64,000 bases of DNA, taken from the NCBI GenBank assembly GCA_027023405.1, contig JALVVN010000038.1, positions 147,333-211,332 on the forward strand, written 5' to 3'. Shown here piece by piece: positions 32,325-47,267 of this stretch. Source of the stretch: Campylobacterales bacterium (GTDB lineage Bacteria > Campylobacterota > Campylobacteria > Campylobacterales > QNZT01). Both the position numbers and the translations under genes were made by a program. Under the pieces are notes generated by a model, which saw nothing but the letters and a program-made list of their open reading frames with translations, made no database searches and was not told where the DNA came from. Numbering within the stretch: the first letter of the stretch is position 1; the number at the start of each line of letters is the position of its first letter.

Positions 32325-34103
32325 CTATACCATTTCCTTATGTTCAAATTCCGGTACAATCCGTTTTAGCGCCTCTATCTTATCATCACTTTGCAAAAGA
32401 TTCTCTATATCGCTATTAAGACGATCGATCGCATAGGGCGTAGGCTTGGCGACAAAGATAGAGTCGTAGGTTGTTTTTTTATCATCATCATTTAGCAGTA
32501 ACTCCTCATAGAGTTTTTCCCCCGCTCTCAAGCCGGTAAATTCAATTCCCAAATGCTCTTTATCATAAAGTTTGAGCATTTTTCGTGCCAGATCGACGAT
32601 CTTGATCGGTTTTCCCATATCCAGCACAAAGAGTTCCCGTTCTTTGGCAATTGCCGCCGCTTGAAGCACCAATTGGCAGGCTTCGGGTATAAGCATAAAG
32701 TAGCGGGTAATCTCAGGATGTGTTACGGCAAGCGGTCGATTGGCTTCGATGAGGCGTTTGAACTTCGGGATCACCGAACCGCTCGAACCGAGGACATTTC
32801 CAAAGCGCACACAGGTGATAAGCGTTTTGCCATTTGGTACATTTTGGGCATACAGTTCACACACCCGTTTGGTTGCTCCCATGACATTGGTGGGTCTGAC
32901 CGCTTTATCGGTGGAGATGAGAACGAAACGATCCGTACCGTATTTAATCGCAAGATCAATTGTATTTTTCGTTCCGATGACATTATTGAGTATTGCTCCT
33001 TCTTGATTCTCTTCACAGAGTGGTACATGTTTGTAGGCGGCAGCATGAATGACAATTTCCGGCCGATAAGTGGCAAAAGTCTTTTCTAGCAGCTTGCGAT
33101 CGACTACCGACTGCATGAGTGAGATCTTGGGCACTCCCTGAATCTGCTCTGAAATTGCATAGAGGTTGTATTCACTGTGATCAAGCAGTATCAACTCTTT
33201 GGCACCAAACCGCTCACATTGACGGGCGATCTCACTCCCGATACTTCCCCCCGCACCGGTAATCAAGATGCGCCGATCTCGAATCAGCGTCTCGATCGCT
33301 TTGAGATCGAGATCTTTGGGACGGCGCGCTAGCAAATCTTCAATGGAGATATCGATGAGCTTTTCATTTTTGTCGCCGAGGAGTTTAGAGCGTTTGATGT
33401 GGGTGATGCCTAGACTTGATAGCTTTTCAAAGAGAGCATCCATTTTGGAAGGTTCAAGATCAAGCGTAATAATCGCCGACTCAATCTCATCATCTGCGAC
33501 AATCTGCTCCAAATCTTCCATGCCAGATATTTTGAGAGATGCCATATATGTCCCGACAACATTCGCGTCTTCATCGACAATACTTACGGGCTCATAGGCA
33601 ATTTCTCCGTTTTTTGCACTGGAGATGAGTGAAAGTGTGCGTTGATTGGCTCCGATAAAGAGTGTGCGAGGACGATCTTCGTGAATCTGCGTACCGGCAA
33701 CGAGGCGTTTGGAAAGCCGCAAACTAAGAAGAAGAAAAAAAGAGAGAAGAAAATCGATCATGATGACTGTACGAGGGAAAGCACCATGATACCAAAAGAA
33801 GAGATAGGTAATAAAAAGTAGATAAGAGAGCAGTAGTGCATAGAGAATTTTTTTGCCATCTGAGAGTATAAAGTAGCGCCAAGTGATCTCATAGACTCTC
33901 AAAAGATACATTGAAACTATTTTTAATCCAACAATAATAAAAACCAGCGATGATGCGCCAAGAATATGCTCAGGAGGTATTTGGAGGTTGAAGCGCAGTA
34001 GATATGCGAGATAGAAAGAGAGATAAAAGATCAGTGCATCTGCAACGATAAAAAAGAGTGTGCGTTTCCACGGCGCACTCTTGAACAGATCAGTAATCTT
34101 CAA
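32325..34103 (-). CDS. pglF: Membrane-bound UDP-sugar 4,6-dehydratase (PglF/CapD/WbpM family)
   Basis: 592 aa with four N-terminal TM helices followed by a Polysacc_synt_2 SDR domain (ILITGAGGSIGSEI, AAAYKHVP, ISTDKAV). Confidence 0.8.
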   Translation of the reverse strand: MKITDLFKSAPWKRTLFFIVADALIFYLSFYLAYLLRFNLQIPPEHILGASSLVFIIVGLKIVSMYLLRVYEITWRYFILSDGKKILYALLLSYLLFITYLFFWYHGAFPRTVIMIDFLLSFFLLLSLRLSKRLVAGTQIHEDRPRTLFIGANQRTLSLISSAKNGEIAYEPVSIVDEDANVVGTYMASLKISGMEDLEQIVADDEIESAIITLDLEPSKMDALFEKLSSLGITHIKRSKLLGDKNEKLIDISIEDLLARRPKDLDLKAIETLIRDRRILITGAGGSIGSEIARQCERFGAKELILLDHSEYNLYAISEQIQGVPKISLMQSVVDRKLLEKTFATYRPEIVIHAAAYKHVPLCEENQEGAILNNVIGTKNTIDLAIKYGTDRFVLISTDKAVRPTNVMGATKRVCELYAQNVPNGKTLITCVRFGNVLGSSGSVIPKFKRLIEANRPLAVTHPEITRYFMLIPEACQLVLQAAAIAKERELFVLDMGKPIKIVDLARKMLKLYDKEHLGIEFTGLRAGEKLYEELLLNDDDKKTTYDSIFVAKPTPYAIDRLNSDIENLLQSDDKIEALKRIVPEFEHKEMV

Positions 34104-35025
34104 AACTTACCGCCTTATCAATAGTTCGCATTAAGATAAAAAGCAATATCATATAACAAATAAAATAAAGATAGAGCCATCTACTCTCATAGAGATAGAT
34201 AAGACCCAACAGCACTGCAAGATTGATACCCATCGCTATCATCACCACTTTATCGTGTGAAAAACCCATTTGCACGGCGCGTTGAAACAGATGCTTTCGA
34301 TGTGCGCTCATCAACCTCTCTCCCGCTAAAGCTCTTCGGATCAGCGTCACAGTCGCATCAAAGATAAAGAGTCCCAGTAGCATGAGCCACAACAGAAGGT
34401 CGTTTAATGAGTGACTATGGTAGAGTGCCATACAAAAAACGAGAAAGCCCAAAAAGGTACTTCCCGCATCGCCCATAAATATTTTCGCCTTGTGCCAATT
34501 GTGGAGCAAAAAACCACTCAAAAGCGCTATCAAGATGAGTAGCGTGGTGTCATGGAAAAAGAGCGTTGCAGCGCCGACGACAAAAATTGCTTCACTCGTT
34601 GCATAACCGTCAATACCGTCCAAGAAGTTGTAGAGATTGATCAGCCACACACCAGAGAGCATCATCAATATGGTTTGCCACCAGGCAAAATGTTCCCATA
34701 ATCCCAATGCCAACATCGCCCATACTACTACACTAAACTGTATCAACAATCGGTAAATGGGCTTTATATGTTTGATATCATCTAGGAAACCGACAAATGC
34801 CAAAGGGATACCACCCAAAAGTGCATAAAAAAGTTCAGAATCTATCTCTAACCGATAGTGCAAAATCACGATCGAAATATAAAACAACACCACAAAAACA
34901 GCACCACCCCCCGTAGGTGTCGGCATCTTGTGGGAGCTTCGATGATTTGGAAGATCGTGAGGTGCATAGGTGCGCATCCACCACACCCCAAAGTAGGAGA
35001 GTAAAAAGAGCATAAAATAGATCAT
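34090..35025 (-). CDS. Polyprenyl-phosphate HexNAc-1-phosphate transferase (GT4 MraY/WecA family)
   Basis: 311 aa polytopic protein with NLYNFLDGIDG and IFMGDAGSTFLGF motifs of the MraY/WecA/WbpL family. Overlaps the pglF-like gene by 14 nt and pglB by 4 nt. Confidence 0.8.
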   Translation of the reverse strand: MIYFMLFLLSYFGVWWMRTYAPHDLPNHRSSHKMPTPTGGGAVFVVLFYISIVILHYRLEIDSELFYALLGGIPLAFVGFLDDIKHIKPIYRLLIQFSVVVWAMLALGLWEHFAWWQTILMMLSGVWLINLYNFLDGIDGYATSEAIFVVGAATLFFHDTTLLILIALLSGFLLHNWHKAKIFMGDAGSTFLGFLVFCMALYHSHSLNDLLLWLMLLGLFIFDATVTLIRRALAGERLMSAHRKHLFQRAVQMGFSHDKVVMIAMGINLAVLLGLIYLYESRWLYLYFICYMILLFILMRTIDKAVSFEDY

Positions 35026-37130
35026 CTTTTTAGTCGATACACCTTTGCGTATGGGCTCATGATCACAGGTTCAAACAGATCTTTATCATAATTTTCAAAA
35101 ACAAACATTTGAATAAAAAGAGAGTTGTAAAACTTCTCATCCACTATCAAAAAAGTACCGTAACTTTGCAAAAAGATGATAGAGAGCTTGGCATTTGGAT
35201 CAAGTTCCTCTACTTTTTGATGAATCTTTCTCTCCTGATCGTACCCCACCACTACAAATCGCTTGAGCGTCGTAGCGCCTTTGCCGATGTGTAAAATCCC
35301 TTTCTCTTTTTCAAGTGCGATCCCGTGATCTAGGTTGAGAATCTTACCGTCATCTTTGAAGCGCCCAGTTTGATAATAGAAAGGTTGCTCACCCTTTTTA
35401 CCGGTCTCAAGATCAAGATTGCTAAAGAGATCAACCGTAGGAAAGATATTGAGCATACGATTGGGCAGATAGAGGTAGATATCACGCGTTTTTGGAGGCA
35501 GAGTATAGCTATCACTTTTGAGCTCATCCAACAGATCATTGGGGCTCTCTTTGGCAAAAAGTGTGTCAGCGACAACACCGCCCTCTTTAACATACTTCTC
35601 AACTGAAACTCTCGCGAGATTGGCTGCGAGTAGAGGTGAAGAAGTGTTGAGTATCTTGGATATGATATAGTTGTCATGTCCATGCTTACCACCGTCGATG
35701 AGCGTATTGGTATCGGAATAGTACCAGATCGGATAGCCGTAGTCCCACCAAGTTAGTGTATAATCTTTGTCACTTGCGATTTTGTCCAACTGCTTGAGAA
35801 CTTTTACCTCTTCGCTGTTGAAAACCGTCGGAACCTTATAGGAGATGATATGCTTGATATTGGGGTAGATCATCAGCGCTGTCAAGGCAGCGATCATTGC
35901 ATATTGAAAGGGTTTTTTATCGCTTGCATTTGCAATGATATAAAATAGATAAACCGCACTCATCGCCGCAATCGGCACGGCAAAAACGGTAAATCTAAGC
36001 CCACCCATTAGTGAAAACACACCGATTCCGATGAGAGGTAACGCAAGAATAAAAGAGCGATAACGAATAACAAGTAGAATATATCCAATGAGGCTAACGA
36101 GTAAGCCGGCAACTGACCCACTAATACGATTTGCCATGACAGAAAACGGTATCTTTCCCGCTTCTCGAACAGTTTGATTAACTTGAAAAAAGTGGAGCCC
36201 CTCTTCATCCACACTTCTTGAAAGATAATAGCTCACTTTACCTATGATGAGCGAGAATACATTGCCGAAATATAAAAACCCGACTACAGCAAAAAATGCC
36301 AATATCATAAGTGGTTTTAACTCTATGCTTGCCTTTTGCAAGATGAAATAAAATAGTACCAACACAGCAACAGTAGCTATGTACGAGAAGGGTGACGGGA
36401 TAAACGAATAAAAAGGCAATGCAGAAAGAGAGACCAAGATGATCGCTTTGTATGTATTCTTCTCTTTGCGATGATAGACAATGAGATAGAGAAAATAGAT
36501 CATCGACATCGCAAAGACCACCGCCCTGCCCTGATCGTACAAAAAAGGATAGATAGCGATCATCACCGCCGCATAAAGTGCACTTTTGAGCGTAAAATTT
36601 TTAACTGATGCCATAAAAAAATAGAGGACAAACATCGGTGCCATCGCTGCAAACATGTCGCTATCATAATAGCCGGTCATCGTACGGTTGTAGTAACTCC
36701 AAGCGATACTTCCAAGCAGTGCTGCAAAAAATCCCCAAAGCGTCGCACCAAAGAGTCTAGCGATCAAAATCATAGGTATCACAACCAATGAAGAGATAAT
36801 TGTAGGCATATAGAGTGTCACTGTCTCAAGCGAAAACGGCGTAATCTTAACTAGTAAAACTGTAAAAAATGTCACACCGTAACTAAGCCACGATGGAACT
36901 CTTGGATTTGGTTCATGCAAGCCAAAGAGTGCCTGTTGAGCTCCCGAGGCAAAGAAGTAGCCGTCATTTGTGTTGATCATAAGCTGACCATTGTAGTGAA
37001 ATGGTGCATAGTCTGCAAATTGAAATACCCATATAAGTCTGATGGCAAAGCTAAAAGCATAAGCTAGAAGAATAAGTCCTATAAGTTGCTTGGTTGAGAT
37101 ATTCTCTTTTGGTAGATCTAAAAATTGCAT
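35022..37130 (-). CDS. pglB: N-linked oligosaccharyltransferase PglB (STT3 family)
   Basis: 702 aa with a 13-TM-type N-terminal half carrying NTNDGYFF, a periplasmic domain with the diagnostic TWWDYGYPIWYYS (WWDYG) motif, and a downstream MLNI (MxxI-type) motif. Confidence 0.9.
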   Translation of the reverse strand: MQFLDLPKENISTKQLIGLILLAYAFSFAIRLIWVFQFADYAPFHYNGQLMINTNDGYFFASGAQQALFGLHEPNPRVPSWLSYGVTFFTVLLVKITPFSLETVTLYMPTIISSLVVIPMILIARLFGATLWGFFAALLGSIAWSYYNRTMTGYYDSDMFAAMAPMFVLYFFMASVKNFTLKSALYAAVMIAIYPFLYDQGRAVVFAMSMIYFLYLIVYHRKEKNTYKAIILVSLSALPFYSFIPSPFSYIATVAVLVLFYFILQKASIELKPLMILAFFAVVGFLYFGNVFSLIIGKVSYYLSRSVDEEGLHFFQVNQTVREAGKIPFSVMANRISGSVAGLLVSLIGYILLVIRYRSFILALPLIGIGVFSLMGGLRFTVFAVPIAAMSAVYLFYIIANASDKKPFQYAMIAALTALMIYPNIKHIISYKVPTVFNSEEVKVLKQLDKIASDKDYTLTWWDYGYPIWYYSDTNTLIDGGKHGHDNYIISKILNTSSPLLAANLARVSVEKYVKEGGVVADTLFAKESPNDLLDELKSDSYTLPPKTRDIYLYLPNRMLNIFPTVDLFSNLDLETGKKGEQPFYYQTGRFKDDGKILNLDHGIALEKEKGILHIGKGATTLKRFVVVGYDQERKIHQKVEELDPNAKLSIIFLQSYGTFLIVDEKFYNSLFIQMFVFENYDKDLFEPVIMSPYAKVYRLKR

Positions 37131-37292: not shown

Positions 37293-37520
37293 TCATCTCA
37301 ATTTGTTCCAATAGCATCTCTTTCGCCTTTTGAAAACGCATCTCTTGCCAGGTAATCTCTCTTTGCAAATAAAATCCACATCATATGAGACTCTATGAGC
37401 TATATAGGTGCTTAGAGCCGTGCCACCGAAAAAATAGAGAGGATAGTTCTCAAAAAGCAAGCTATGTTTTATCTTCTCAAGCAATGCTTTGATCTCTTTT
37501 GTCACTTCTGCATCCTCCAC
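37293..37520 (-). pseudogene. Truncated AbiEii/AbiGii-family nucleotidyltransferase toxin remnant
   Basis: Only 75 codons remain. YFFGGTALSTYIAHRVSYDVDFI matches the N-terminal GGTAL...R.S.D.DF block of AbiEii, after which the frame degenerates. Full-length toxins are several-fold longer, and only about 390 nt remain before pglB. Confidence 0.55.
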
Positions 37521-37963
37521 CTCTCAAACTGCATAAGCGTCTCACGAATCTTTTGATAATTTTTATCCCGTCTATCCTTGTAGAGCTTCAAGCTCTCCTC
37601 TACCAATCTTGTGTATCCAAAAAGTGAATAAAGCCCCATAAGATCATCTTGCGTATAGTTTCTTAAATATGCCTTAAGCAAAGTATCGACTTTGATCCTA
37701 AATCCATCCTTAACATTCCAAAAGAGATCATTTGAAAAAAGCTTTTTGTTGAGAGGTATCTCTTTCATGGAGCGTTTAACATAGACTCTCTGAGCAGGTT
37801 TGTAAAATCTCCCTCTACCGCTCTTTACGATGATGCCCCTATCGGCCAATCTCGATATATAGACGCGAAGTTTATCACTTTGCATATCAAATACTTTATA
37901 GCTATATATAGTATCAGATTTAAGCTTTTTAACTTTCCTTAAGATTTTATCAAACTCCGACAA
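37502..37963 (-). CDS. AbiEi-family antitoxin / transcriptional regulator (wHTH)
   Basis: 153 aa. VYISRLADRGIIVKSGRGRFYKP matches the AbiEi_4-type L.rL...G.i.r..rG.Y winged-helix signature. Overlaps the AbiEii remnant by 19 nt. Confidence 0.55.
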   Translation of the reverse strand: MSEFDKILRKVKKLKSDTIYSYKVFDMQSDKLRVYISRLADRGIIVKSGRGRFYKPAQRVYVKRSMKEIPLNKKLFSNDLFWNVKDGFRIKVDTLLKAYLRNYTQDDLMGLYSLFGYTRLVEESLKLYKDRRDKNYQKIRETLMQFERWRMQK

Positions 37964-37990: not shown

Positions 37991-38048
37991 GATAAATTAT
38001 AACGAAAAAGTTTCGTTACAGATAGATTATAACGAAAATATTTCGTTA
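37991..38048. promoter_or_regulatory. Two tandem 28-bp repeats, each with a perfect 8-bp-arm palindrome; candidate AbiEi operator
   Basis: The repeats are gataaattaTAACGAAAaagTTTCGTTA (37991-38018) and gatagattaTAACGAAAataTTTCGTTA (38021-38048). They lie 28-85 nt upstream of the abiEi start at 37963. Confidence 0.5.
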
Positions 38049-38137
38049 ACGCAATGTTTTTTAGCCTCTTAAGTTTTTATATAAATATCTTTTCATTCCT
38101 GATGGTAGTAAGAAAAGCACAAAATGAGCCATTCTTT

Positions 38138-39148
38138 TCAACCTAAGAGACTCTTTTTTAAATAGTTTGATATTATTGTACCAATTCCAACCAAAGAACC
38201 AAAACCATATGAGATATGTAGAGTAATAAAAGTAGCAATAAGATAGAAAAATGAGTTATCTTCATCTTTTAGTTTGATTGAAAAGTATAAAATTGCAACA
38301 AGATATGCTAAAAATGAGGCTAATGAGATAATGAAAAATTTTTTATTTAATAAAGCCAACAAAGATGGTAATAGAAGTGACAATACAAAGAGAAGAGGAA
38401 TTATATGGTGAAGATGCAGTGATGAGAACCTTTTTGTGATATATGGATTTAGTACTACCCATTTACCGGTATTAAAACTCTTTTTTGCCAAATCTTTTAA
38501 GCTCTCTTTTGCATAATAGGTAAAAGAGAGATCAGGTACGATATATACTTTCCCTCCTCTATCAATAAATCTCTTATTTATCTCCAAATCCTCTGTTCTC
38601 TCTAACCGTTCATCAAAGCCTCCATATTTTAAAAGTGCCTCTTTTTTAAAGCATCCAAATGGAACAGTGTTTGATCTTTTAGGTTGATCGATTTCCCCTC
38701 TATAATCTCCTCCACCTACTCCAAATTTATGACTCATAACTGCTTTGATGGCATTTGTCTTTGGGGTTTTAGTCAGTACATCTGTAACACATACTCCACC
38801 TACATTATCTGCATCAAGCTTTTTTGCCCAATATAAAAGATTGGAAAAGTACTCCTTTGGATAGAGTGAGTGTGCATCTATACGGATGATATACGCCCCT
38901 TGAGCATGTTTTATACCTATGTTCATCGCAACAGGAATAATCTTTTTTTCATTTGTATATAGTTTTATAAAAGAATATTTTTGCATATACTCTTTTACTA
39001 TCTTTACGGTATTGTCACTACTTAAGCCATCGATAACTAATACTTCATAACTTCCTATTTTCAAATCTGACTCTATAACAGAGTCTAAACAAGAAGTGAT
39101 ATATCTCTCTTCATTTAGTGTAGGAATAATAATCGATACTTCAACCAT
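38138..39148 (-). CDS. Family 2 glycosyltransferase with C-terminal membrane anchor
   Basis: 336 aa with VSIIIPTLNEERYI...VIDGLSSDNT and a RIDAHS (DxH-like) region of GT2, plus 3-4 C-terminal TM helices. Confidence 0.8.
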   Translation of the reverse strand: MVEVSIIIPTLNEERYITSCLDSVIESDLKIGSYEVLVIDGLSSDNTVKIVKEYMQKYSFIKLYTNEKKIIPVAMNIGIKHAQGAYIIRIDAHSLYPKEYFSNLLYWAKKLDADNVGGVCVTDVLTKTPKTNAIKAVMSHKFGVGGGDYRGEIDQPKRSNTVPFGCFKKEALLKYGGFDERLERTEDLEINKRFIDRGGKVYIVPDLSFTYYAKESLKDLAKKSFNTGKWVVLNPYITKRFSSLHLHHIIPLLFVLSLLLPSLLALLNKKFFIISLASFLAYLVAILYFSIKLKDEDNSFFYLIATFITLHISYGFGSLVGIGTIISNYLKKSLLG

Positions 39149-39149
39149 A

Positions 39150-40052
39150 CTATAAAACTCTCTCTATCTGTTGATAAACATACTTGACACTCATATTATT
39201 AAAACATTTAAAATCTTGGCACTTTATAGGTTTATATTTTGTATGAAAACATGGACGACAATCTATGTCAATATATATATCAAAGTTTCTATCTCTATCA
39301 TAACTTCCAACCTCTTTTTCATCAGTCATCCCAAAGATAGTAAATGTTTTAATCCCAACCGCTTTTCCTATATGCATCAAACCGTTATCGTTTCCTATCA
39401 GTAGATCTAACTTTGATATAACATTTATACTATCTTCCAAACTCTCTTTAACGATCTTTATCGATTTGGCATCTTTTAATCTATCATATAAATCATCTTC
39501 ATCCGGACCGATAAAAACTAAAATATTTGCATCAAACTTACCCATTAATTCTATAAACTTTTCAATATCCCATCTCTTGAACTTCTGTTTATACCCACTA
39601 CCGACAGCAAAACCTATATTTTTTCTATTTTGAACTATATATGGTTGAAATGAATCACTTTTTGGGATATATATATAAGGCTGTTTAGTAATCTCTTTAC
39701 AAAACGGCTTGACCATATTGAGATTTAACTCTAGTCTGTGAATGCCTTTTTTTTGAAATGTCGAGATTACATGTTTTGCACCTATCATCAGGTTTAAAAG
39801 TTTTGCCTTTAGGGGATTGGTTCCTGCAGTTACAATAAAGTAATCATACTTTTTATAAAATCTCAAAAAATCTGTTATCTTGTTGATTACAAATATATTT
39901 TTGACAAATTTAGCCTCTTTCACTATCGATCTATTTATACTATTTGTTAGTACTAAATCAACTTCATATCCATTTAATGCTAAAGTTTTCAACATCGGTG
40001 TTGCCATAACAAGATCGCCTATACCCCAACTATGAAATACTAAAATTTTCAT
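39150..40052 (-). CDS. Family 9 glycosyltransferase (heptosyltransferase-like)
   Basis: 300 aa with an N-terminal KILVFHSWGIGDLVMATPMLKTL and C-terminal LIGNDNGLMHIGKAVGIKTFTIFG, the GT9 signature blocks. Confidence 0.8.
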   Translation of the reverse strand: MKILVFHSWGIGDLVMATPMLKTLALNGYEVDLVLTNSINRSIVKEAKFVKNIFVINKITDFLRFYKKYDYFIVTAGTNPLKAKLLNLMIGAKHVISTFQKKGIHRLELNLNMVKPFCKEITKQPYIYIPKSDSFQPYIVQNRKNIGFAVGSGYKQKFKRWDIEKFIELMGKFDANILVFIGPDEDDLYDRLKDAKSIKIVKESLEDSINVISKLDLLIGNDNGLMHIGKAVGIKTFTIFGMTDEKEVGSYDRDRNFDIYIDIDCRPCFHTKYKPIKCQDFKCFNNMSVKYVYQQIERVL

Positions 40053-40055
40053 TTC

Positions 40056-41111
40056 CTACACATACTCTTTCAAATAATTTAACAGCTTTTGACTCTGTCT
40101 ATCCCAACTAAATTTACTAAAGTCAAAGTTATGCACTTTTTTTTCAATGCTGGTCATCATTTTATCAAATTCATCAATCTTTGCAAACTCGATAAACGGA
40201 AAATTTTTTTGTTTTAACAACTTCAAAGGGGTCGATAAAACTGTAGCACCGGACAAACCATACTCTAAAGCTTTAATTGGAAATGCATTGTTAGTAAAAT
40301 CGTTTAATTTGAATGGTATCAAACCGATATCAAGGGTTTTAAAGTAGTCTCCTACTTTTTCAGGAGAGATCATACCTGTAAAGATGATATCATTTTGGTA
40401 TCTTCTTTTTAACTCTTGAAAAAAGTAGGAATTGCTATCACCGACAACAATCATTGCGTTGTTATGTGATTTAACTTTCATATATGCTTCACAGGCTCTA
40501 TCTATCCCTGTCCACTCATCTACTCCACCAATATAACCAAACACCTTTTTCTCTTCTAATCCAAGTTCTCTTTTAAGTGACTTTGCCTCTGCAAACCTAT
40601 CGATATATACCCCATTTTCAATAGTTATAACATTTTGATTTAACTCTCTTACTTTTTCCTGCAATATATCCGTAACCGCTATAACTGCTTGTGAATTTCT
40701 TATATCATCTTTTATCTTACCAACGCGTTTCCTGCTAAGACCTATATCACTGTTTATCTCTAGATGGTCATCTACCAAATCATAAACCACAGGAACTTTT
40801 ATTTTTTTTATATCAAATAACAACGCGTTTGCATTAACAACTATATCTATGTGTAATTTATCTATCAACAGGTTAAGATTTTTACTGTTTATTTGAGCTG
40901 CGAACTTCTCAGGTCGAAAAAGGAGTGGTATCTGGACTATCTTCCCATCTTGTTTATATTTTAATGAGTTGAGTTGTGATTTAACCTTCTCTTTAAATGA
41001 ACTATTCTCAATCTCCCAATATAAAAAATAGCTATTTGTACTTTTTGCAAACTCATAAACGCGGTTTATCAACTTTATATTTGGTGTATGGGGGATGAAG
41101 AGGATGTTCAT
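40056..41111 (-). CDS. GT-B fold glycosyltransferase (GT4/GT1-like)
   Basis: 351 aa with a GYIGGVDEWTGID region and a C-terminal FPIKALEYGLSGATVLST block resembling the E-x7-E region of Glycos_transf_1. Confidence 0.65.
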   Translation of the reverse strand: MNILFIPHTPNIKLINRVYEFAKSTNSYFLYWEIENSSFKEKVKSQLNSLKYKQDGKIVQIPLLFRPEKFAAQINSKNLNLLIDKLHIDIVVNANALLFDIKKIKVPVVYDLVDDHLEINSDIGLSRKRVGKIKDDIRNSQAVIAVTDILQEKVRELNQNVITIENGVYIDRFAEAKSLKRELGLEEKKVFGYIGGVDEWTGIDRACEAYMKVKSHNNAMIVVGDSNSYFFQELKRRYQNDIIFTGMISPEKVGDYFKTLDIGLIPFKLNDFTNNAFPIKALEYGLSGATVLSTPLKLLKQKNFPFIEFAKIDEFDKMMTSIEKKVHNFDFSKFSWDRQSQKLLNYLKEYV

Positions 41112-42322
41112 TTTGACAATAACCTTCCTTTAAAATATAAAGCTGAAAAAAACATGAGTAAAAAACTTATATCCAAACTATATATTATTGATTTTTCATC
41201 TAAACCAAACAGATACAAGAGAGCTATTATAATAAAAAAAGTGATATTCCCTATAACTCTCACCCAAAGTGCGAGATCAAACCTGTCGAATCCTTTTAAT
41301 ATATTAACAAGAAAAGATGTGTAGATTATAAATGGTAAAAACGGCAACATAAGATTAAGTAATTTATAACTATTTTGATAGCTTACTGGAAAAATCAATC
41401 CTATAACTGTCTTGGTAAAAAAAAGACCTACTAGTATTAACAAAAACATCAGTAGCAAATATTTTTGTAATACTTTTTCCATTCTTGTTACTTCATAATA
41501 TCTATTTTCAGAGATAAATCTGGAGACTTCAGGAAAAGTATAAGATGCAACAGGGTGAGCAAAAATAGCAACAAGTGCAAAAAAAATACTTTTTACAACA
41601 ACTTGATACTCTGATAAGATATCACTACTATTAAAAAAATAAAGCATAATTATTGCACTCATATAGATTGATATTGAACCCAAAAAAGATGTAACTGTGG
41701 CAAGTAGATAATTTTTCATAAATTTTTTATAAGTATCTATATTAACAAAATTTTCAGGCATAAAAAATATGTTTGGAGAAGTAATGTATATATATATTGT
41801 ATGAATAAACATTTGTAAAATGTATGCAACTATAAGAGCATTAAGATTGTCAAAATATTTACTTAGTATTACAAAACTTAGTACTAAACTTAAAGCTTTT
41901 ATGCTCTTTTCATAAAGCATAGAGTTATAGTTTTTATATGCTACATTCAAATATGAATAAAAATTTGATATTTGTGTGGCTATAAAGAAAAGTAGTAGCA
42001 AATAGACAGAAAATATTTTATTCTGATTATTTTGTAAATTATAGAGCAAAAGTAGTACTAGCACAGAGGCAATACTCACTGCTAAATAGTTTCTAACAAT
42101 ATATCTATATACTTCAAAAAACTTTTTTTCCGAATATACTTTAATCATACTATCTTTGTATCCTGTAAAAAAAAGAGCTACTATTGATACTAAATCCAAC
42201 AAAGTATAAAAAATACCAAGTTTATCTTTAGATATATGGTAAGATAAATATATCTTAAATCCAAAGTTGATAGCTGTAACAAAAATAGTTAATAAGATTG
42301 ATTTAGAGATTATGCTTTTCAT
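41108..42322 (-). CDS. Polytopic membrane protein, Wzx-like oligosaccharide flippase (MOP superfamily)
   Basis: 404 aa that is almost entirely hydrophobic helices (about 10-12), sitting among glycosyltransferases. No sharp motif; called by topology and context. Confidence 0.55.
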   Translation of the reverse strand: MKSIISKSILLTIFVTAINFGFKIYLSYHISKDKLGIFYTLLDLVSIVALFFTGYKDSMIKVYSEKKFFEVYRYIVRNYLAVSIASVLVLLLLYNLQNNQNKIFSVYLLLLFFIATQISNFYSYLNVAYKNYNSMLYEKSIKALSLVLSFVILSKYFDNLNALIVAYILQMFIHTIYIYITSPNIFFMPENFVNIDTYKKFMKNYLLATVTSFLGSISIYMSAIIMLYFFNSSDILSEYQVVVKSIFFALVAIFAHPVASYTFPEVSRFISENRYYEVTRMEKVLQKYLLLMFLLILVGLFFTKTVIGLIFPVSYQNSYKLLNLMLPFLPFIIYTSFLVNILKGFDRFDLALWVRVIGNITFFIIIALLYLFGLDEKSIIYSLDISFLLMFFSALYFKGRLLSK

Positions 42323-42999
42323 TTAAATTGCAAAAAAAGTTTAATAAGTTTAACTATGTAATGGATTAACCTAACCAAAATAACATAAACCAAAGAGAAA
42401 TCAAGATGATCAAAAAGTAGTCCAAGAGTGATAATAAATATCCATTTATCATAGAGTGTAAACATATCTACAATTTTGATAATTGGTCTCAACCTGCTAC
42501 TCTTTTCCTGTAATGATATAGGCTGAGTTGAGTTTTCTTCCAAAGTTGATTCTGCAACCAAATTTTTTTCTAATGCAAACTCCAAAAAAGAGAGTATAAA
42601 AAATAGAGTTGTTAAATAGAGATAAAAGGTATTACTTGTTGTGTTATAGAGATAAACTCCCATAGAAAATAGAACTATAGATATATTCCATCCATCTACC
42701 AAACTATCAAATAGGGCACCAAACTTCGATGTCATTTTTTTCACTCTAGCCCATTGCCCATCAAAATTATCAAAAAGATATAATAGATTCAATAAAATAG
42801 CCGATGTTATTAAATAACCATTTATTAGTGCAAATCCAAATAACATACCAAATATTAATGACAATAGAGTAAAAAAATTAGGCGATAAATTGAACTTTTG
42901 TATTCTATAAATTAATTGGGTAGCAATCTCGTTACTGATTCGTAACCAAAACCCCCTTCCTTTTTGTGTTTGCCTAATCTCAACTATTGAGTACTTCAT
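42319..42999 (-). CDS. CDP-alcohol phosphatidyltransferase family protein
   Basis: 226 aa membrane protein. FDNFDGQWARVKKMTSKFGALFDSLVDG matches D-x2-D-G-x2-A-R-x8-G-x3-D-x3-D exactly. Confidence 0.85.
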   Translation of the reverse strand: MKYSIVEIRQTQKGRGFWLRISNEIATQLIYRIQKFNLSPNFFTLLSLIFGMLFGFALINGYLITSAILLNLLYLFDNFDGQWARVKKMTSKFGALFDSLVDGWNISIVLFSMGVYLYNTTSNTFYLYLTTLFFILSFLEFALEKNLVAESTLEENSTQPISLQEKSSRLRPIIKIVDMFTLYDKWIFIITLGLLFDHLDFSLVYVILVRLIHYIVKLIKLFLQFK

Positions 43000-43679
43000 A
43001 CCTTACCTTTCATATAGTTAACTATATATTTAGCATATAATTCGTTACTATCGAAGACTGCTTTCCTTTTATAACTATTAAGTTTTTTTGATATCGTCAA
43101 CTCTGTACATCCAAATAAAATTGAGTCAATATTATAAGTATCAAATAGATCAATCAGTTGTTCAGCAAGTTGTTCAACTTTAACTTGATCATTTATTTTT
43201 ACAGCTTCTATTAATTGATAAACTATTTTATTTTCATTATCATTTAAATACATTGTATTTTGAAGGTATTTATCATATAACCTTTTTGTAACTGTTACAT
43301 AACCACCCAAAACAAGTGTCTTCTTATATCCAGACATTTTAATTTCATTTGAAATAATTTGTAACATATTTAGCCATGGTATATTTATCCGTTCAATAAC
43401 TCTATCATAAAAATAGTGAACTGAATTACAAGGAAGAACAACAGCTTTGGCACCAACAGCTTCTAATCTATTGATTGCTTTAATAATATATGGTGTTGGA
43501 TCCTCTTCATTATATAATATATATCTTGTCCGACTAGGTATCGTTATATCACTATCTAAAATAATGTGAATATGCTCCCAATCTTTTTTAGCAGGAGTTA
43601 AATCATAAATTTTTTTAGTAAATTCCAAAGAAGCATATGGTCCCATACCTCCTAAAATTGCTAATATCTCTTTATCCAT
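42996..43679 (-). CDS. Aspartate/glutamate-type (PLP-independent) racemase family protein
   Basis: 227 aa with ILGGMGPYAS at the N-terminus and both catalytic Cys blocks, VLPCNSVHYF and LFGCTELT. Confidence 0.8.
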   Translation of the reverse strand: MDKEILAILGGMGPYASLEFTKKIYDLTPAKKDWEHIHIILDSDITIPSRTRYILYNEEDPTPYIIKAINRLEAVGAKAVVLPCNSVHYFYDRVIERINIPWLNMLQIISNEIKMSGYKKTLVLGGYVTVTKRLYDKYLQNTMYLNDNENKIVYQLIEAVKINDQVKVEQLAEQLIDLFDTYNIDSILFGCTELTISKKLNSYKRKAVFDSNELYAKYIVNYMKGKV

Positions 43680-44444
43680 CTATTCCTCTTTTTTAAACAC
43701 ATAATAGTAGTTAACAAGTTTATTTAAACTTGGCTTCCAAACTAAGTCTTTGCATTTTAAACACCTAAGAAGATACTTATACATCTTTTCTTGAAATAAA
43801 AAACTTAATTTTAACCTGTTTAATAGATCTCTTAACTCACCTACTCTATAAGCTAAATTCTCTTTTGTAACTAAAAGTTTTAGTTCATTTATATCTTTAT
43901 AAAAATTTTTGAAACGATAATAAGCAATATATCTATCATCTATTTTATCAACTCTCTCTTTTGTCATAACACTTTCCCTTAAAACCAAAACAGCACTCTT
44001 ATTTAGTATCTTATTTATATTTTCATAGATATAGTTGATAGATCTATCCTCAATATACATTAACACACCACCAACATAAATAAAGTCATATTTAACTTTA
44101 CTATGCCCTATCCACTCTTCTAATGTCGCTTTATGATACTGAATATTTGTAAAATCACTATTTTCTCTATTTCGTTTGATTATAGGCTGTGCAATATCTA
44201 TCGCATCAACTTTATCAAAATATTGAGATAATACTCTACTAAATCTACCATTTCCACATCCTACATCCAATGCTCTTGTTCTATTATTATGTGTTGTAAA
44301 TTTATATATAAACTCTTTTAACTCTTCCTTTTCAATCAAAAAACGAAAATTATTAATTTTTGAATCATTACTTATATAACCACCGTCATCTAAATCGTTA
44401 TAAGCACTATTCCAAAACTCATCAATAATTTTATTTGTTTGCAT
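43680..44444 (-). CDS. Class I SAM-dependent methyltransferase
   Basis: 254 aa with motif I ALDVGCGNGRFS, an acidic loop VDAIDIA and the downstream FIYVGGVLMYIED. Confidence 0.8.
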   Translation of the reverse strand: MQTNKIIDEFWNSAYNDLDDGGYISNDSKINNFRFLIEKEELKEFIYKFTTHNNRTRALDVGCGNGRFSRVLSQYFDKVDAIDIAQPIIKRNRENSDFTNIQYHKATLEEWIGHSKVKYDFIYVGGVLMYIEDRSINYIYENINKILNKSAVLVLRESVMTKERVDKIDDRYIAYYRFKNFYKDINELKLLVTKENLAYRVGELRDLLNRLKLSFLFQEKMYKYLLRCLKCKDLVWKPSLNKLVNYYYVFKKEE

Positions 44445-45438
44445 TTTTCATCATTTCAATTTGTTCTAAAAGATAGTTTTTTGTATCTCTCTGTTCTTGT
44501 AAATACTTTTCTATTACCTCCATCTCTTCATCTATTTCCAATATATACTCAGTATCCATCTTTATCTCATTTTCAATAGAGACATTGGCTATCAAATAGC
44601 CTATATCCCTTTTATTACCTTTTCTTAATCTTTCTAACAATGTTGGAAAATCATCTTTCCTAAAAGGGAAAAAATGGCGTGTTGTTCGTGGAGGATATAA
44701 TTTTTCATTTAATGCTCTATCAATAACTTCAGCTTTTGAAATAGTTAAAGTTTTATCCTTTAAAAAACGATGTTTTAGATGGTTCCCGACAAAAATTGTT
44801 TCATCTTCATAATTGACATACAATACAGGTGCTTCAAGATAACCCTCTTGTAATAAATAGGCATACCTGTGAGATCCATCTAAAACAATATTATATTTTC
44901 TATCTACAATCAAAGGTTTTTTTATAAAACCATCTTTTTCTACCATATCAGCAATATTTGAAAGATGAGTAGGTAAAACTTGTTCTAATGGTCTTAATTG
45001 ATCTATAGGTACTAACTCAACAGACATTTTAATATTTAAACTACTCAAAGAGAGTGCTTTTAATGCCATGCTATTATTTCGTAATTCCGTAGCACTGTAG
45101 CCTATTCCCTCCGTCCTTGGAATGAATTTAGTTTTATACTCTTTAGAGAGTTTATCTAAAACTTTTTGGTTCCCCGACAACACAGTATCTACTCCACTAG
45201 GGATAACAACCGTTCCTTTCTCTACTATTCCAGTAACTTTATGAACTTCAATTGATTTAAAATCTGCAAATACTTCATTTAATATATCACAAACTTCTGT
45301 TGTGGACATTATCTTTTTGTCTTCTGTTACACCGATAATTAACTTTTCATACTCTTTATATATCCTCAATATTGTACGAATGTGTCCTAAATGTGGGGGT
45401 TGAAACTTTCCTAAAAAGATTGCAACATTTTTACTCAA
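44431..45438 (-). CDS. Fusion protein: cytidylyltransferase-fold domain + ParB/sulfiredoxin-like domain
   Basis: 335 aa. The N-terminus has GKFQPPHLGH (HxGH) and PRTEGIGYSATELR (RTEGIS-type). Residues ~140-215, VELVPIDQLRPLE...PLIVDRKYNIVLDGSHRYAYL, resemble the ParB/Srx DGxHR fold. The C-terminus is a coiled tail. Confidence 0.65.
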   Translation of the reverse strand: MSKNVAIFLGKFQPPHLGHIRTILRIYKEYEKLIIGVTEDKKIMSTTEVCDILNEVFADFKSIEVHKVTGIVEKGTVVIPSGVDTVLSGNQKVLDKLSKEYKTKFIPRTEGIGYSATELRNNSMALKALSLSSLNIKMSVELVPIDQLRPLEQVLPTHLSNIADMVEKDGFIKKPLIVDRKYNIVLDGSHRYAYLLQEGYLEAPVLYVNYEDETIFVGNHLKHRFLKDKTLTISKAEVIDRALNEKLYPPRTTRHFFPFRKDDFPTLLERLRKGNKRDIGYLIANVSIENEIKMDTEYILEIDEEMEVIEKYLQEQRDTKNYLLEQIEMMKNANK

Positions 45439-47171
45439 ACTCTCTCTCCTACAATAAAATAGTATCTATTCATTTTGGGTACTTTGCTACCCTCATCATC
45501 CAAATAGCAGATATCTTTGATTTTAAATCCATTTGTTTTTAAAAGATACTCCCATTGAATTATGTTATACCATTTCTCACGAAAAGGAGAATCAAATGGA
45601 TACATCCATCGTCCACTTATCTCATAAAAAGGCTTTAACACCCCAAGTAATGATAAAGGATTTCTATCACCGATAATCAATATTCCACCCGGTTTAAGAC
45701 TATTGTAAATAGAGCTTAAGGCTTCATCAATAACTGTATGCTGCAAAACTTCAAATGTCATAATTGCATCGTATTTGCCAATGATGTTATAGATACTCCC
45801 TTTTTTGATCTGTTGATTTTCATAAACAGGATCTATACCTACAAATTTTGTTTTTTGATACACTTTTTGAAGTTCACTTATCATCACCCCTTTCCCACAA
45901 CCAACATCTAAAACAGTCTGATTTTCATCCATTATATACTTTTTAATAGATGCTATATACTTTTTGTCCATCTCACTAATATTATCAGTTACGATTTGAT
46001 TTGAGACATTAAAAGCATTTGAGACAAAAAACTCCTGCTCTTTTACTCTATCAATATCTAAAGCATCATATAAGATCATCGAATCAATAAAAAATTTATT
46101 ACTCCAATTTACAAACTCAAACCCACCATACCTTCCCCAAAAAGGGCTACTGGCACTAAAACCACCTTTCATGATAGATGTTTTAAGTTGTTTCGCTTTT
46201 AGATAGTAGAGTGTTGAAGATGCACTTTTTAGATATGCTTCGTCTTTTGTAATCTTATATAATCGAAGTGCAACACCAGTCCACTGGGCTAAACCGGTTA
46301 TACACCTCTCGCTGTTAGTACACTCAAAATTCTCATTATATTGAGAACATAGGATAAGATCTCGATCATCACCCCTATCTTTTAAAACGGCTGTATTTTT
46401 CAATACAGCTTCAAGAATATCTTTATCCTGGGTTCTATCATAGATATCAAGTAATCCTTCTAAAACATAGACAATCGTATGTAAATATGCATCTACTCCA
46501 TCTACAAAGGAGCTATATTTAAAGAACCCGTTTGGTAGTTGGTTTGACAAGACCCATTTGATATTTTTCAGAGCTCTCTCTTTAAACTCCTCATTTTCAA
46601 CTATTTCTCCAGCTTCATAGAGAGCAGAAGCTACACGGGAGTAGTATGTATGTTTTTGATTATTATATGCAAACTTTTCCCAACTACCGTCATCATTTTG
46701 AACGGTTATAAGCCACAAAGCAACTTTTTCAATCGCTTGTTTATATCTATCTTCTCTAGTATAACGATAGAGGCTATTTAAACCAAATAGTATTTGACCG
46801 GTATCAAAGACAAAAGGCTTATTTGTATCTATTTCATTAAAACTACCATTATCATTTTGCATATCCAAAAGCCACTCTCCAGCTTTCAAAGCAGAGCTAA
46901 TATATTTCTCTTCTTTTAATTTTAATAGGGTTGGTATGATATATCCGGTCGTCTCTATATAACTGTTGTCTCTACCTGATATAAAGCCAAATTTTCTGCT
47001 ATAACCACCATCACTGTTTTGCATATACAAAAGCCAATCTGCAGCCATCTTTATGTGAGTTTTATTATCAAATATCTCATCATTAAACATACTTTTAACT
47101 GAGGATATAAGTATACTGGGATACTTCAACGAGTGTAAAAATCCATAAATATTTAAAACTATTTTTTTCAT
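45435..47171 (-). CDS. Fusion protein: terpene-cyclase/prenyltransferase-like alpha/alpha toroid repeats + class I SAM methyltransferase
   Basis: 578 aa with five spaced repeats of the type A..WL...Q..DGS(F/W): AADWLLYMQNSDGGYS, AGEWLLDMQNDNGSFN, VALWLITVQNDDGSWE, NIKWVLSNQLPNGFFK, and a weaker fifth. The C-terminus has VLDVGCGKGVMISEL...LKPGGILIIGD. Confidence 0.65.
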   Translation of the reverse strand: MKKIVLNIYGFLHSLKYPSILISSVKSMFNDEIFDNKTHIKMAADWLLYMQNSDGGYSRKFGFISGRDNSYIETTGYIIPTLLKLKEEKYISSALKAGEWLLDMQNDNGSFNEIDTNKPFVFDTGQILFGLNSLYRYTREDRYKQAIEKVALWLITVQNDDGSWEKFAYNNQKHTYYSRVASALYEAGEIVENEEFKERALKNIKWVLSNQLPNGFFKYSSFVDGVDAYLHTIVYVLEGLLDIYDRTQDKDILEAVLKNTAVLKDRGDDRDLILCSQYNENFECTNSERCITGLAQWTGVALRLYKITKDEAYLKSASSTLYYLKAKQLKTSIMKGGFSASSPFWGRYGGFEFVNWSNKFFIDSMILYDALDIDRVKEQEFFVSNAFNVSNQIVTDNISEMDKKYIASIKKYIMDENQTVLDVGCGKGVMISELQKVYQKTKFVGIDPVYENQQIKKGSIYNIIGKYDAIMTFEVLQHTVIDEALSSIYNSLKPGGILIIGDRNPLSLLGVLKPFYEISGRWMYPFDSPFREKWYNIIQWEYLLKTNGFKIKDICYLDDEGSKVPKMNRYYFIVGERV

Positions 47172-47267
47172 AAAAACCTACAAACCCTAAACTAAGTACA
47201 AAAAACTGCATAAATCTTTAATTAAATTTAATTATTTATATAATATATAAAAATTGTTAAACTAGGC

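Follow-up and report, generated by a model that had tools for sequence, protein, structure and literature searches.

In a 64,000-nucleotide stretch of the genome of a Campylobacterales bacterium (GenBank assembly GCA_027023405.1, contig JALVVN010000038.1, positions 147,333 to 211,332 of the forward strand; here called the window), overlapping genes encode a two-cysteine amino-acid racemase and a cytidine diphosphate (CDP)-alcohol phosphotransferase. The best explanation for this pair is that both enzymes serve a single head-group pathway, each catalysing one of its steps, and that a translationally coupled cassette within a pglB locus, acquired horizontally, encodes this pathway. The conserved gene set probably makes a CDP-activated, methylated d-serine-type phosphate that becomes attached to a lipid-linked N-glycan.

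Both open reading frames (ORFs) are located where the original prediction, which was made from the sequence alone, had placed them. That prediction gave no strand; they lie on the minus strand (Table 1). The two cysteine blocks claimed for the racemase, VLPCNSVHYF and LFGCTELT, can be read in its translation, and the transferase contains the complete family motif D-x2-D-G-x2-A-R-x8-G-x3-D-x3-D at residues 77–102 (DNFDGQWARVKKMTSKFGALFDSLVD), again as claimed. The predicted 4-nt overlap is also present: plus-strand positions 42996–42999 read TCAT, i.e. ATGA on the coding strand, which combines the TGA of the racemase gene with the ATG of the transferase gene. Immediately upstream of this overlap lies a Shine-Dalgarno-like stretch (GGTAAGG). 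A second ATGA overlap (42319–42322) joins the stop codon of the transferase gene to the start codon of a Wzx-like flippase gene. On the other side of the pair, the stop codon of a methyltransferase gene abuts the ATG of the racemase gene, and the two genes further upstream in the cassette show overlaps of 14 and 4 nt.

A telling indication that the pair is more than a chance arrangement comes from relatives of the racemase. Eighty metagenomic loci of racemase relatives were scanned with hidden Markov models (HMMs) built for this analysis, neighbours being counted within 6 kb, and a tree of 84 racemases was calculated in a quick IQ-TREE run. The window racemase belongs to one clade (Shimodaira–Hasegawa-like approximate likelihood ratio test, SH-aLRT, 98). 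All 10 clade members with enough flanking sequence have a CDP-OH or LicD phosphotransferase and/or a kinase/nucleotidyltransferase as neighbours; the remaining three members are found on contigs shorter than 3.4 kb. Such neighbours were found for none of the 71 racemases outside the clade. This distribution suggests that the racemase clade is dedicated to CDP-amino-acid-type cassettes. Co-occurrence of the gene pair in other genomes, proposed as a check by the original prediction, was thus found, and it extends to divergent transferase lineages. The transferases paired with clade racemases score only 16–50 bits against one another between lineages, so the pairing of racemase and transferase reflects function and not the joint inheritance of a single block.

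The adjacency could in principle have no pathway meaning, if an aspartate or cysteate racemase supplied a d-amino acid for use elsewhere, e.g. for an amide-linked glycan substituent. Consistent with this, the racemase passes the model of the aspartate-racemase subfamily and one clade member passes the cut-off of the cysteate racemase CuyB (see below). However, the clade-specific association (10 of 10 assessable members versus 0 of 71 outside), the 4-nt translational coupling and a racemase–methyltransferase fusion in a sister cassette all speak against it, and no CuyA-type lyase is encoded nearby. We consider such a coincidence extremely improbable.

The sister cassettes combine the racemase with different partners. 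A marine trio (L015) consists of a kinase–nucleotidyltransferase, in which the two domains occur in reversed order (47% and 41% identical), a racemase and a transferase. The trio (L015:3454-5945; racemase cluster P0223, 79 member sequences) is without a methyltransferase and adjoins FUR, cobW, amylase and SusC-like receptor genes. In L016, the racemase and transferase genes are located beside an NTP_transferase fused to an ApgM-like domain; this fusion matches two phosphoglycerate-mutase models of NCBIfam (361 and 356 bits), and a 'proposed homoserine kinase' comes third (347 bits). In L024, separate kinase and nucleotidyltransferase genes are followed by a racemase fused to a PF05891-like methyltransferase and then by the transferase. 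The racemase–methyltransferase fusion ties these two steps together. The transferases of both loci have variants of the family motif. That of L016 (L016:9730-10464) reads D-x2-D-G-x2-A-R-x8-G-x3-D-x3-H, the last Asp being replaced by His; that of L024 (L024:7407-8300) shows the same replacement and has Glu as the third acidic residue, and it has no Pfam match at E 1e-3.

LicD-type phosphotransferases take the place of the CDP-alcohol enzyme in two further loci. L096 encodes a clade racemase with methyltransferases, a nucleotidyltransferase, a LicD-type phosphotransferase and a HAD enzyme, the combination of HAD enzyme and nucleotidyltransferase being that of the Fta system discussed below. L014 (Aliarcobacter skirrowii) is a flagellin glycosylation island in which the racemase is accompanied by methyltransferases, a nucleotidyltransferase and a LicD-type phosphotransferase; beside the racemase, L014:5235-8235 encodes a DUF711 protein, a protein of 215 aa without family assignment and an NTP_transferase with a weak SerK-like HMM match (59 bits). 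The nearest outgroup of the window transferase occurs in L098, in a set of methyltransferase, clade racemase, transferase (with the perfect motif) and NTP_transferase. This set (L098:213-3077; JGI 3300076260, Ga0565086_001065) adjoins phage-like genes (NUMOD3, SNF2 helicase, PDDEXK, SprT-like and AAA_24). A phage may carry the L098 head-group module, possibly for host surface conversion. The activation step has been assembled independently in at least four ways. The arrangements are nucleotidyltransferase–kinase, kinase–nucleotidyltransferase, separate genes, the NTP_transferase–ApgM-like fusion, and HAD enzyme plus nucleotidyltransferase.

The racemase matches PF01177 (E 5.5e-27, 95 bits versus a cut-off of 31) and passes the aspartate-racemase subfamily model TIGR00035 (140.7 versus 93.1 bits). 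Both of its cysteine motifs are in register with those of the aspartate racemase of Pyrococcus horikoshii (PDB 1jfl, E 2e-31), such that C84 and C191 align with C82 and C194. C84, C191, R50 and K161 are invariant in 26 homologues; R50 and K161 correspond to R48 and K164 of the Pyrococcus enzyme, which reportedly bind the side-chain carboxylate (Ohtaki et al. 2008). The closest model is that of CuyB (NF052483), whose cut-off the racemase fails to reach (160.2 versus 190 bits). The original prediction had proposed checking whether the protein groups with a non-racemase subfamily. It groups with the two-cysteine aspartate and cysteate racemases instead, and an arylmalonate decarboxylase or maleate isomerase was ruled out since both cysteines are present and the nearest solved proteins are of other kinds: the 13 solved structures listed as matches at E ≤ 0.001 comprise Asp/Glu racemases, putative or family-level members, and McyF. 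The protein is also distinct from glutamate racemase, scoring 31.7 bits against the MurI model TIGR00067 (cut-off 146.65), and a separate true MurI (210 bits) is encoded on contig 34 of the genome.

CuyB of Bilophila wadsworthia, the nearest characterized racemase, acts on l-cysteate, a C3 amino acid with an anionic β-substituent, and not on Ser or Cys (PMC11193023). Together with the invariant Arg and Lys, this suggests that the substrate of the window racemase likewise has an anionic β-substituent and would be a phosphorylated or CDP-bound amino acid rather than free serine. No CuyA-type sulfo-lyase gene was seen in any cassette examined. Literature searches on 'phosphoserine racemase' returned nothing relevant, with no racemase described for phosphorylated or CDP-linked amino acids, and a search on 'CDP-serine' likewise found nothing relevant.

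A candidate source for a CDP-bound amino acid is encoded two genes upstream of the racemase, where an HxGH nucleotidyltransferase is fused to a domain that resembles free serine kinase. This domain matches the NCBIfam models SerK (E 2.8e-13) and SbnI (E 4.3e-7). In the alignment with free serine kinase (PDB 5x0b), RPLEQ corresponds to KPHEQ, which contains the Glu that is replaced in the E30Q and E30A structures, DGSHRYA corresponds to DGHHRWA, and TTRH is kept. Among 28 homologues, E152, D187, G188 and R191 are invariant, and the DGxHR and TTRH motifs as a whole vary little or not at all. A structural model of the fusion (predicted local distance difference test, pLDDT, 85.8) has free serine kinase (5x0k, E 8e-8) as its best Foldseek match. 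From these matches, the fusion protein is predicted to produce the CDP-amino acid. Serine is our best guess for the amino acid, since SerK accepts free l-serine with strict specificity. The use of cytidine triphosphate (CTP) is suggested because the partner is a CDP-alcohol phosphotransferase, and not from the nucleotidyltransferase fold; binding of CTP has been reported for one SerK-like protein (PMC12704722).

The methyltransferase encoded between the fusion and the racemase has the α-N-methyltransferase family PF05891 as its best match and is a predicted N-methylase of the head group. It is homologous (E 1e-14) to the methyltransferase domain that is fused to the clade racemase in L024, and orthologous cassettes contain one or two copies of a PF05891-like methyltransferase. 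A second methyltransferase, joined to an α/α-toroid domain, is encoded at the head of all pgl-type cassettes and does not occur in the other architectures.

The transferase is a clear member of PF01066 (E 8.5e-15, 55.9 bits versus a cut-off of 22), and all eight residues of its motif are invariant in 20 orthologues. The original prediction had pointed out that a close match to phosphatidylglycerophosphate or phosphatidylserine synthase, with no paralogue elsewhere, would make it a housekeeping enzyme. The scores against both models are far below the cut-offs (pgsA, 18.1 versus 109.1 bits; pssA, 32.7 versus 107 bits), and the genome (2.03 Mb, 99.9% complete) carries two other PF01066 genes, on other contigs, which encode a true PgsA (151.8 bits) and an enzyme of the PssA type (92 bits). 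PgsA, the PssA-type enzyme and MurI are all encoded elsewhere, and so the window pair are not the housekeeping enzymes. All named NCBIfam equivalogs lie far out of reach of the transferase. Its highest scores against them, all sub-threshold, are for di-myo-inositol-phosphate-phosphate (DIPP) synthase (57.8 versus 180 bits), archaetidylinositol-phosphate synthase (43.8 versus 170) and phosphatidylinositol phosphate (PIP) synthase (39.6 versus 580). These three families are its nearest relatives, although it belongs to none of them. The nearest solved relatives by sequence are AF2299 and IPCT-DIPPS (17–20% identity). A confident structural model (pLDDT 85) is likewise closest in fold to AF2299 (TMq 0.74, E 1e-5), followed by PIPS (0.64) and DIPPS (0.63), whereas the values for PgsA (∼ 0.4), CPT1 (0.38) and PssA (0.36) are lower. 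In a search of 1.84 billion representatives the transferase clade is isolated, its own cluster scoring 374 bits and the next best 91. We regard the protein as a predicted phospho-amino-acid transferase that would release cytidine monophosphate (CMP).

These comparisons bear on two other products. The transferase could act in the manner of PssA, with CDP-diacylglycerol as the donor and racemase-supplied d-serine as the acceptor, to yield phosphatidyl-d-serine, the kinase–nucleotidyltransferase being used for something else. Serine is indeed the acceptor of PssA and of the archaetidylserine synthases, to which the transferase has weak matches (32.7 and 30 bits, respectively). This route is very unlikely, however: it leaves unexplained the recurrent coupling to a hydroxy-amino-acid kinase and nucleotidyltransferase, the nearest racemases prefer anionic side-chains (CuyB being inactive on serine), and the fold is far from that of PssA. 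The second possibility is a soluble phosphodiester, i.e. a compatible solute like di-myo-inositol phosphate in which the phospho-amino acid is joined to a small soluble alcohol. DIPP synthase is among the nearest named families, the carriers of the cassette are vent dwellers and the L015 trio is without glycan genes. Against such a solute stands the location of the cassette in a pgl locus, with the flippase gene directly next in every orthologous case, and the cassette has no DIPP-type phosphatase; we find it highly improbable.

The glycan operon described by the original prediction is well supported by Pfam assignments. In the 5′ to 3′ direction the cassette encodes the toroid–methyltransferase, the nucleotidyltransferase/serine-kinase-like fusion, the methyltransferase, the racemase, the transferase and the Wzx-like flippase, and these are followed on the same strand by glycosyltransferases of families GT4, GT9 and GT2, a small ORF, PglB, a WecA-type transferase and a PglF-like dehydratase (Table 1). 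The presence of the PglB gene marks the locus as one of N-glycosylation. A nine-gene block (38000–47200, ∼ 38–47 kb) has a G+C content of 26–34% versus 41–48% in the flanking clpA/aat and pglB regions, which fits horizontal acquisition next to pglB; the block resembles an island inserted beside that gene. At its edge, between pglB and the GT2 gene, lies an ORF of 153 aa (37502–37963, minus strand), for which no Pfam family was found at E 1e-3. A consensus scan placed a promoter-like site at 47260–47231, upstream of the cassette, that matches 10 of 12 positions, but such sites were overall not above shuffles; the scan found no terminator-like site within 38–47 kb, with counts likewise not above shuffles. 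The window DNA occurs in hydrothermal-vent metagenome runs, one of which may be its source; no RNA run was listed among those that contain it.

Table 1. Positions of the racemase–transferase pair, of the remaining cassette genes and of adjoining features in the window.
Feature	Position	Strand	Basis
Two-cysteine amino-acid racemase, independent of pyridoxal phosphate (PLP), 227 aa	42996-43679	-	PF01177, TIGR00035
CDP-alcohol phosphotransferase, 226 aa, all-helical membrane protein	42319-42999	-	PF01066, motif residues 77-102
ATGA stop/start overlap of the racemase and transferase genes	42996-42999	-	Read from the sequence
Class I methyltransferase dependent on S-adenosylmethionine (SAM), 254 aa	43680-44444	-	PF05891 47.3 bits, nearly full profile
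HxGH nucleotidyltransferase (residues 1-125) fused to free-serine-kinase-like ParB/Srx-fold domain (136-335), 335 aa	44431-45438	-	PF01467, SerK, SbnI
α/α-toroid (squalene-cyclase/prenyltransferase-like) fused to class I methyltransferase, 578 aa	45435-47171	-	PF13243, PF00432, PF13489
96-bp gap upstream of the cassette	47172-47267	-	One of four joint top-scoring (10 of 12) promoter-like matches on this strand, weak evidence
Wzx-like multi-span flippase, 404 aa	41108-42322	-	PF01943 25.7 bits, slightly below cut-off
GT4 glycosyltransferase	40056-41111	-	Pfam; low-GC block
GT9 glycosyltransferase	39150-40052	-	Pfam; low-GC block
GT2 glycosyltransferase	38138-39148	-	Pfam; low-GC block
PglB oligosaccharyltransferase	35022-37130	-	PF21436 149 bits, PF02516, PF18527

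Close orthologues of the transferase are rare: they form 28 clusters among 5.8 billion proteins, and one is present in only 2 of 401 sampled genomes of the phylum. Where their surroundings are available, the layout of the cassette is kept. A strict pattern scan of genome contigs with the transferase alignment recovered one locus, that of a Sulfurovum metagenome-assembled genome (MAG). At 52–67% transferase identity, the gene order is preserved beside pglB in Hydrogenimonas sp. SS33, in the Sulfurovum MAG and in two other vent lineages. In each of the four lineages examined, the cassette is followed by PglB, and the Wzx-like flippase gene comes directly after the transferase gene in L004, L005 and L007. 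The region downstream of pglB varies. In the window it encodes a WecA/MraY-type GT4 (PF00953) and a PglF-like dehydratase (32325–35025, minus strand), and the same place in Hydrogenimonas and Sulfurovum (L004:16915-20419, L005:17064-20511) is occupied by PglC (Bac_transf), PglE-like and PglF-like genes. The enzyme that initiates the N-glycan therefore differs among carriers of the same cassette. The family of the nucleotidyltransferase/SerK-like fusion is far wider (526 clusters) than the racemase–transferase pair. The fusion and the adjoining methyltransferase occur without a racemase in an O-antigen-like locus of Francisella philomiragia (L009:6548-9874) and in a flagellin glycosylation island of Thermomonas brevis (L010:6616-9801).

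From the gene structure, protein families, catalytic motifs, gene order, clade-specific association and domain fusions described above, we infer a route, which includes a choice of amino acid, CTP as the nucleotide, methylation ahead of racemization, a final d-configuration and an acceptor. The serine-kinase-like domain would phosphorylate a free hydroxy-amino acid, most likely l-serine, and the fused HxGH nucleotidyltransferase would convert the phospho-amino acid with CTP to a CDP-amino acid. One or more α-N-methyltransferase-like enzymes would then methylate the amine. The racemase would invert the α-carbon of the phosphorylated or CDP-bound amino acid, whose anionic side-chain resembles that of aspartate or cysteate. 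At the cytoplasmic face, the membrane transferase would take the phospho-(N-methyl)-d-amino acid from CMP and place it on a hydroxyl group of the glycan linked to undecaprenyl diphosphate, and the Wzx-like flippase and PglB would deliver the decorated glycan to proteins.

The original prediction had a d-amino acid (d-Asp, d-Glu or d-Ser type) or a derivative joined through a phosphodiester. Our checks support the d-amino acid and the phosphodiester. The upstream nucleotidyltransferase/serine-kinase-like fusion, which the original prediction had not drawn on, argues against d-Asp and d-Glu, which have no hydroxyl to phosphorylate, and indicates that the amino acid is the CDP-activated donor and not the acceptor. 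The earlier caution that glycan, lipid and solute cannot be told apart from sequence still stands, and in the present case the pglB context favours a glycan. Two other head groups were considered and set aside. Phosphocholine or phosphoethanolamine, made from serine phosphate by decarboxylation and then methylation, does not fit, as the cassette has no decarboxylase and the α-carboxylate is required by a two-cysteine racemase; for a CDP-glycerate-type head group, the racemase and the α-N-methyltransferase-like enzyme point to an amino acid instead.

The choline/ethanolamine Kennedy pathway employs a kinase, an HxGH nucleotidyltransferase and a CDP-alcohol phosphotransferase, and a lipid made by such a pathway is the main rival to a decorated glycan. 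The phospho-(N-methyl)-d-amino acid would in that case be passed to diacylglycerol or another lipid alcohol to give a phosphatidyl-d-serine-like product, which might remain in the membrane or act as a donor in the periplasm. The cassette has exactly these enzyme classes, the characterized bacterial PF01066 members other than DIPPS are all known as lipid synthases, and the L015 trio is located among non-glycan genes. Set against this, the cassette is surrounded in four lineages by pglB and by genes for sugar nucleotides, glycosyltransferases and a Wzx-like flippase, LicD-type glycan phosphotransferases are employed by sister cassettes located in flagellin or glycan islands, and the fold of the transferase is nearest to AF2299 and DIPPS, not CPT1. 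We therefore judge a lipid product to be rather unlikely and prefer transfer to the lipid-linked N-glycan.

Several observations nevertheless weigh against the glycan route as we have drawn it. The kinase-like domain shares only ∼ 17% identity with SerK, has no counterpart of SerK residues 98–203 and is far below the SerK equivalog cut-off (49.6 versus 380 bits), so that serine is a guess and the substrate may be threonine or another hydroxy acid. The best fold matches of the N-terminal domain of the fusion are the adenylyltransferases PPAT and NMNAT. The racemase of the clade member L098 passes the CuyB cut-off (196 versus 190 bits). No glycan genes lie near L015, which shows that a lipid or a solute may be the product of related modules. 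Finally, we know of no CDP-alcohol phosphotransferase for which a glycan acceptor has been established.

It was not until 2026 that CDP-activated amino acids were established as real metabolites, in a single flagellin pathway (bioRxiv 10.64898/2026.02.12.704994), and decoration with phospho-amino acids via CDP-amino acids is known from this one system. New here are a dedicated racemase clade that implies d-amino-acid head groups, the classical CDP-alcohol phosphotransferase, the N-glycosylation locus and the independent fusions that link individual steps. We tentatively raise the possibility that phosphodiester-linked d-amino acids form a widespread and undescribed class of surface decoration, which would include the first racemase acting on O-phosphoserine or a CDP-amino acid and classical CDP-alcohol phosphotransferases, a family known for lipid and solute synthesis, that here decorate lipid-linked glycans. 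If so, CDP-d-serine and its N-methyl forms would be new metabolites. The racemase module would have been paired with two phosphotransferase families and no fewer than three activation chemistries, in loci of the N-glycan, flagellin and capsule-like kinds and apparently also on a phage-like contig. The cassette suggests that CDP-amino-acid chemistry is much more widespread and modular, that it was invented with unrelated enzymes and that it reaches bacterial N-glycosylation. Inversion to the d-form, which this chemistry can include, would protect the surface group from ordinary peptidases and phosphatases and give it a distinct antigenicity. The large CDP-alcohol phosphotransferase family would gain donors, and possibly also acceptors, of a new class, and a function would be assigned to a racemase clade that is now annotated as aspartate or cysteate racemase. 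Hydrogenimonas sp. SS33, a sequenced organism with the whole cassette, offers a directly testable case.

The individual enzymes can be compared with characterized relatives. The window racemase shares with 1jfl and CuyB the PLP-independent two-cysteine fold, both cysteine motifs and the Arg and Lys aligned with R48 and K164, but belongs to a separate clade with the signature PCNS(V/A)(H/C)YF and scores below the CuyB cut-off. Unlike CuyB, the clade racemases are not beside CuyA in the cassettes examined and are found in CDP-head-group cassettes. The kinase-like domain has the ParB/Srx fold, the aligned catalytic Glu and the DGxHR and TTRH motifs in common with SerK of Thermococcus kodakarensis (5x0b) and SbnI of Staphylococcus aureus. 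It differs from SerK in that ∼ 100 residues of the SerK C-terminal domain are missing, a long C-terminal helix is added and a nucleotidyltransferase is fused to it. With AF2299 and IPCT-DIPPS of Archaeoglobus fulgidus (PDB 4o6m/4o6n and 4mnd, respectively) the transferase shares the motif and the helical membrane fold, and DIPPS is a precedent for a soluble CDP-alcohol donor (CDP-inositol) made by an associated nucleotidyltransferase. The window transferase is without the fused cytoplasmic domain, however, and its predicted donor and acceptor, a CDP-amino acid and a glycan, are different.

As a pathway, the cassette resembles the Kennedy pathway and the Lic system of phosphocholine decoration, in which a phospho-amine head group is installed by the successive action of a kinase, a cytidylyltransferase and a phosphotransferase. 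Here, by contrast, the head group is predicted to retain its carboxylate, which the racemase needs, and to be inverted to the d-form, and the kinase family is unrelated to the choline kinases. The closest parallel is FtaABCD of Clostridioides difficile (CD0241–CD0244), which, like PA1088–PA1091 of Pseudomonas aeruginosa, adds phospho-N-methyl(or dimethyl)-threonine to flagellin glycans after glycosylation, via CDP-threonine; in C. difficile, the CDP-threonine is N-methylated by FtaC and the TagF-like FtaD moves phospho-N-methylthreonine to the N-acetylglucosamine (GlcNAc) on flagellin (bioRxiv 10.64898/2026.02.12.704994; PMC10714395). The logic is the same, namely a phospho-amino acid, activation with CTP, SAM-dependent N-methylation and transfer from CMP to a sugar hydroxyl, and in both cases a single compact operon lies within a protein-glycosylation locus. 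The enzymes differ at each step. Phosphorylation is carried out by a HAD/ThrH-like phosphotransferase in Fta versus a ParB/Srx-fold SerK-like kinase here, activation by a GlmU/ManC-type nucleotidyltransferase versus one of the HxGH type, and transfer by a TagF-like enzyme without the CDP-alcohol phosphotransferase motif versus a classical membrane CDP-alcohol phosphotransferase. A Pfam scan detected none of the families of FtaA (HAD), FtaB (NTP_transferase) and FtaD (TagF-like) in the window cassette. Fta has no racemase and its product is based on l-threonine; its target is an O-linked flagellin sugar, whereas a lipid-linked N-glycan is predicted here. We consequently view the window cassette as a probable non-homologous analogue of FtaABCD, not as a member of that system.

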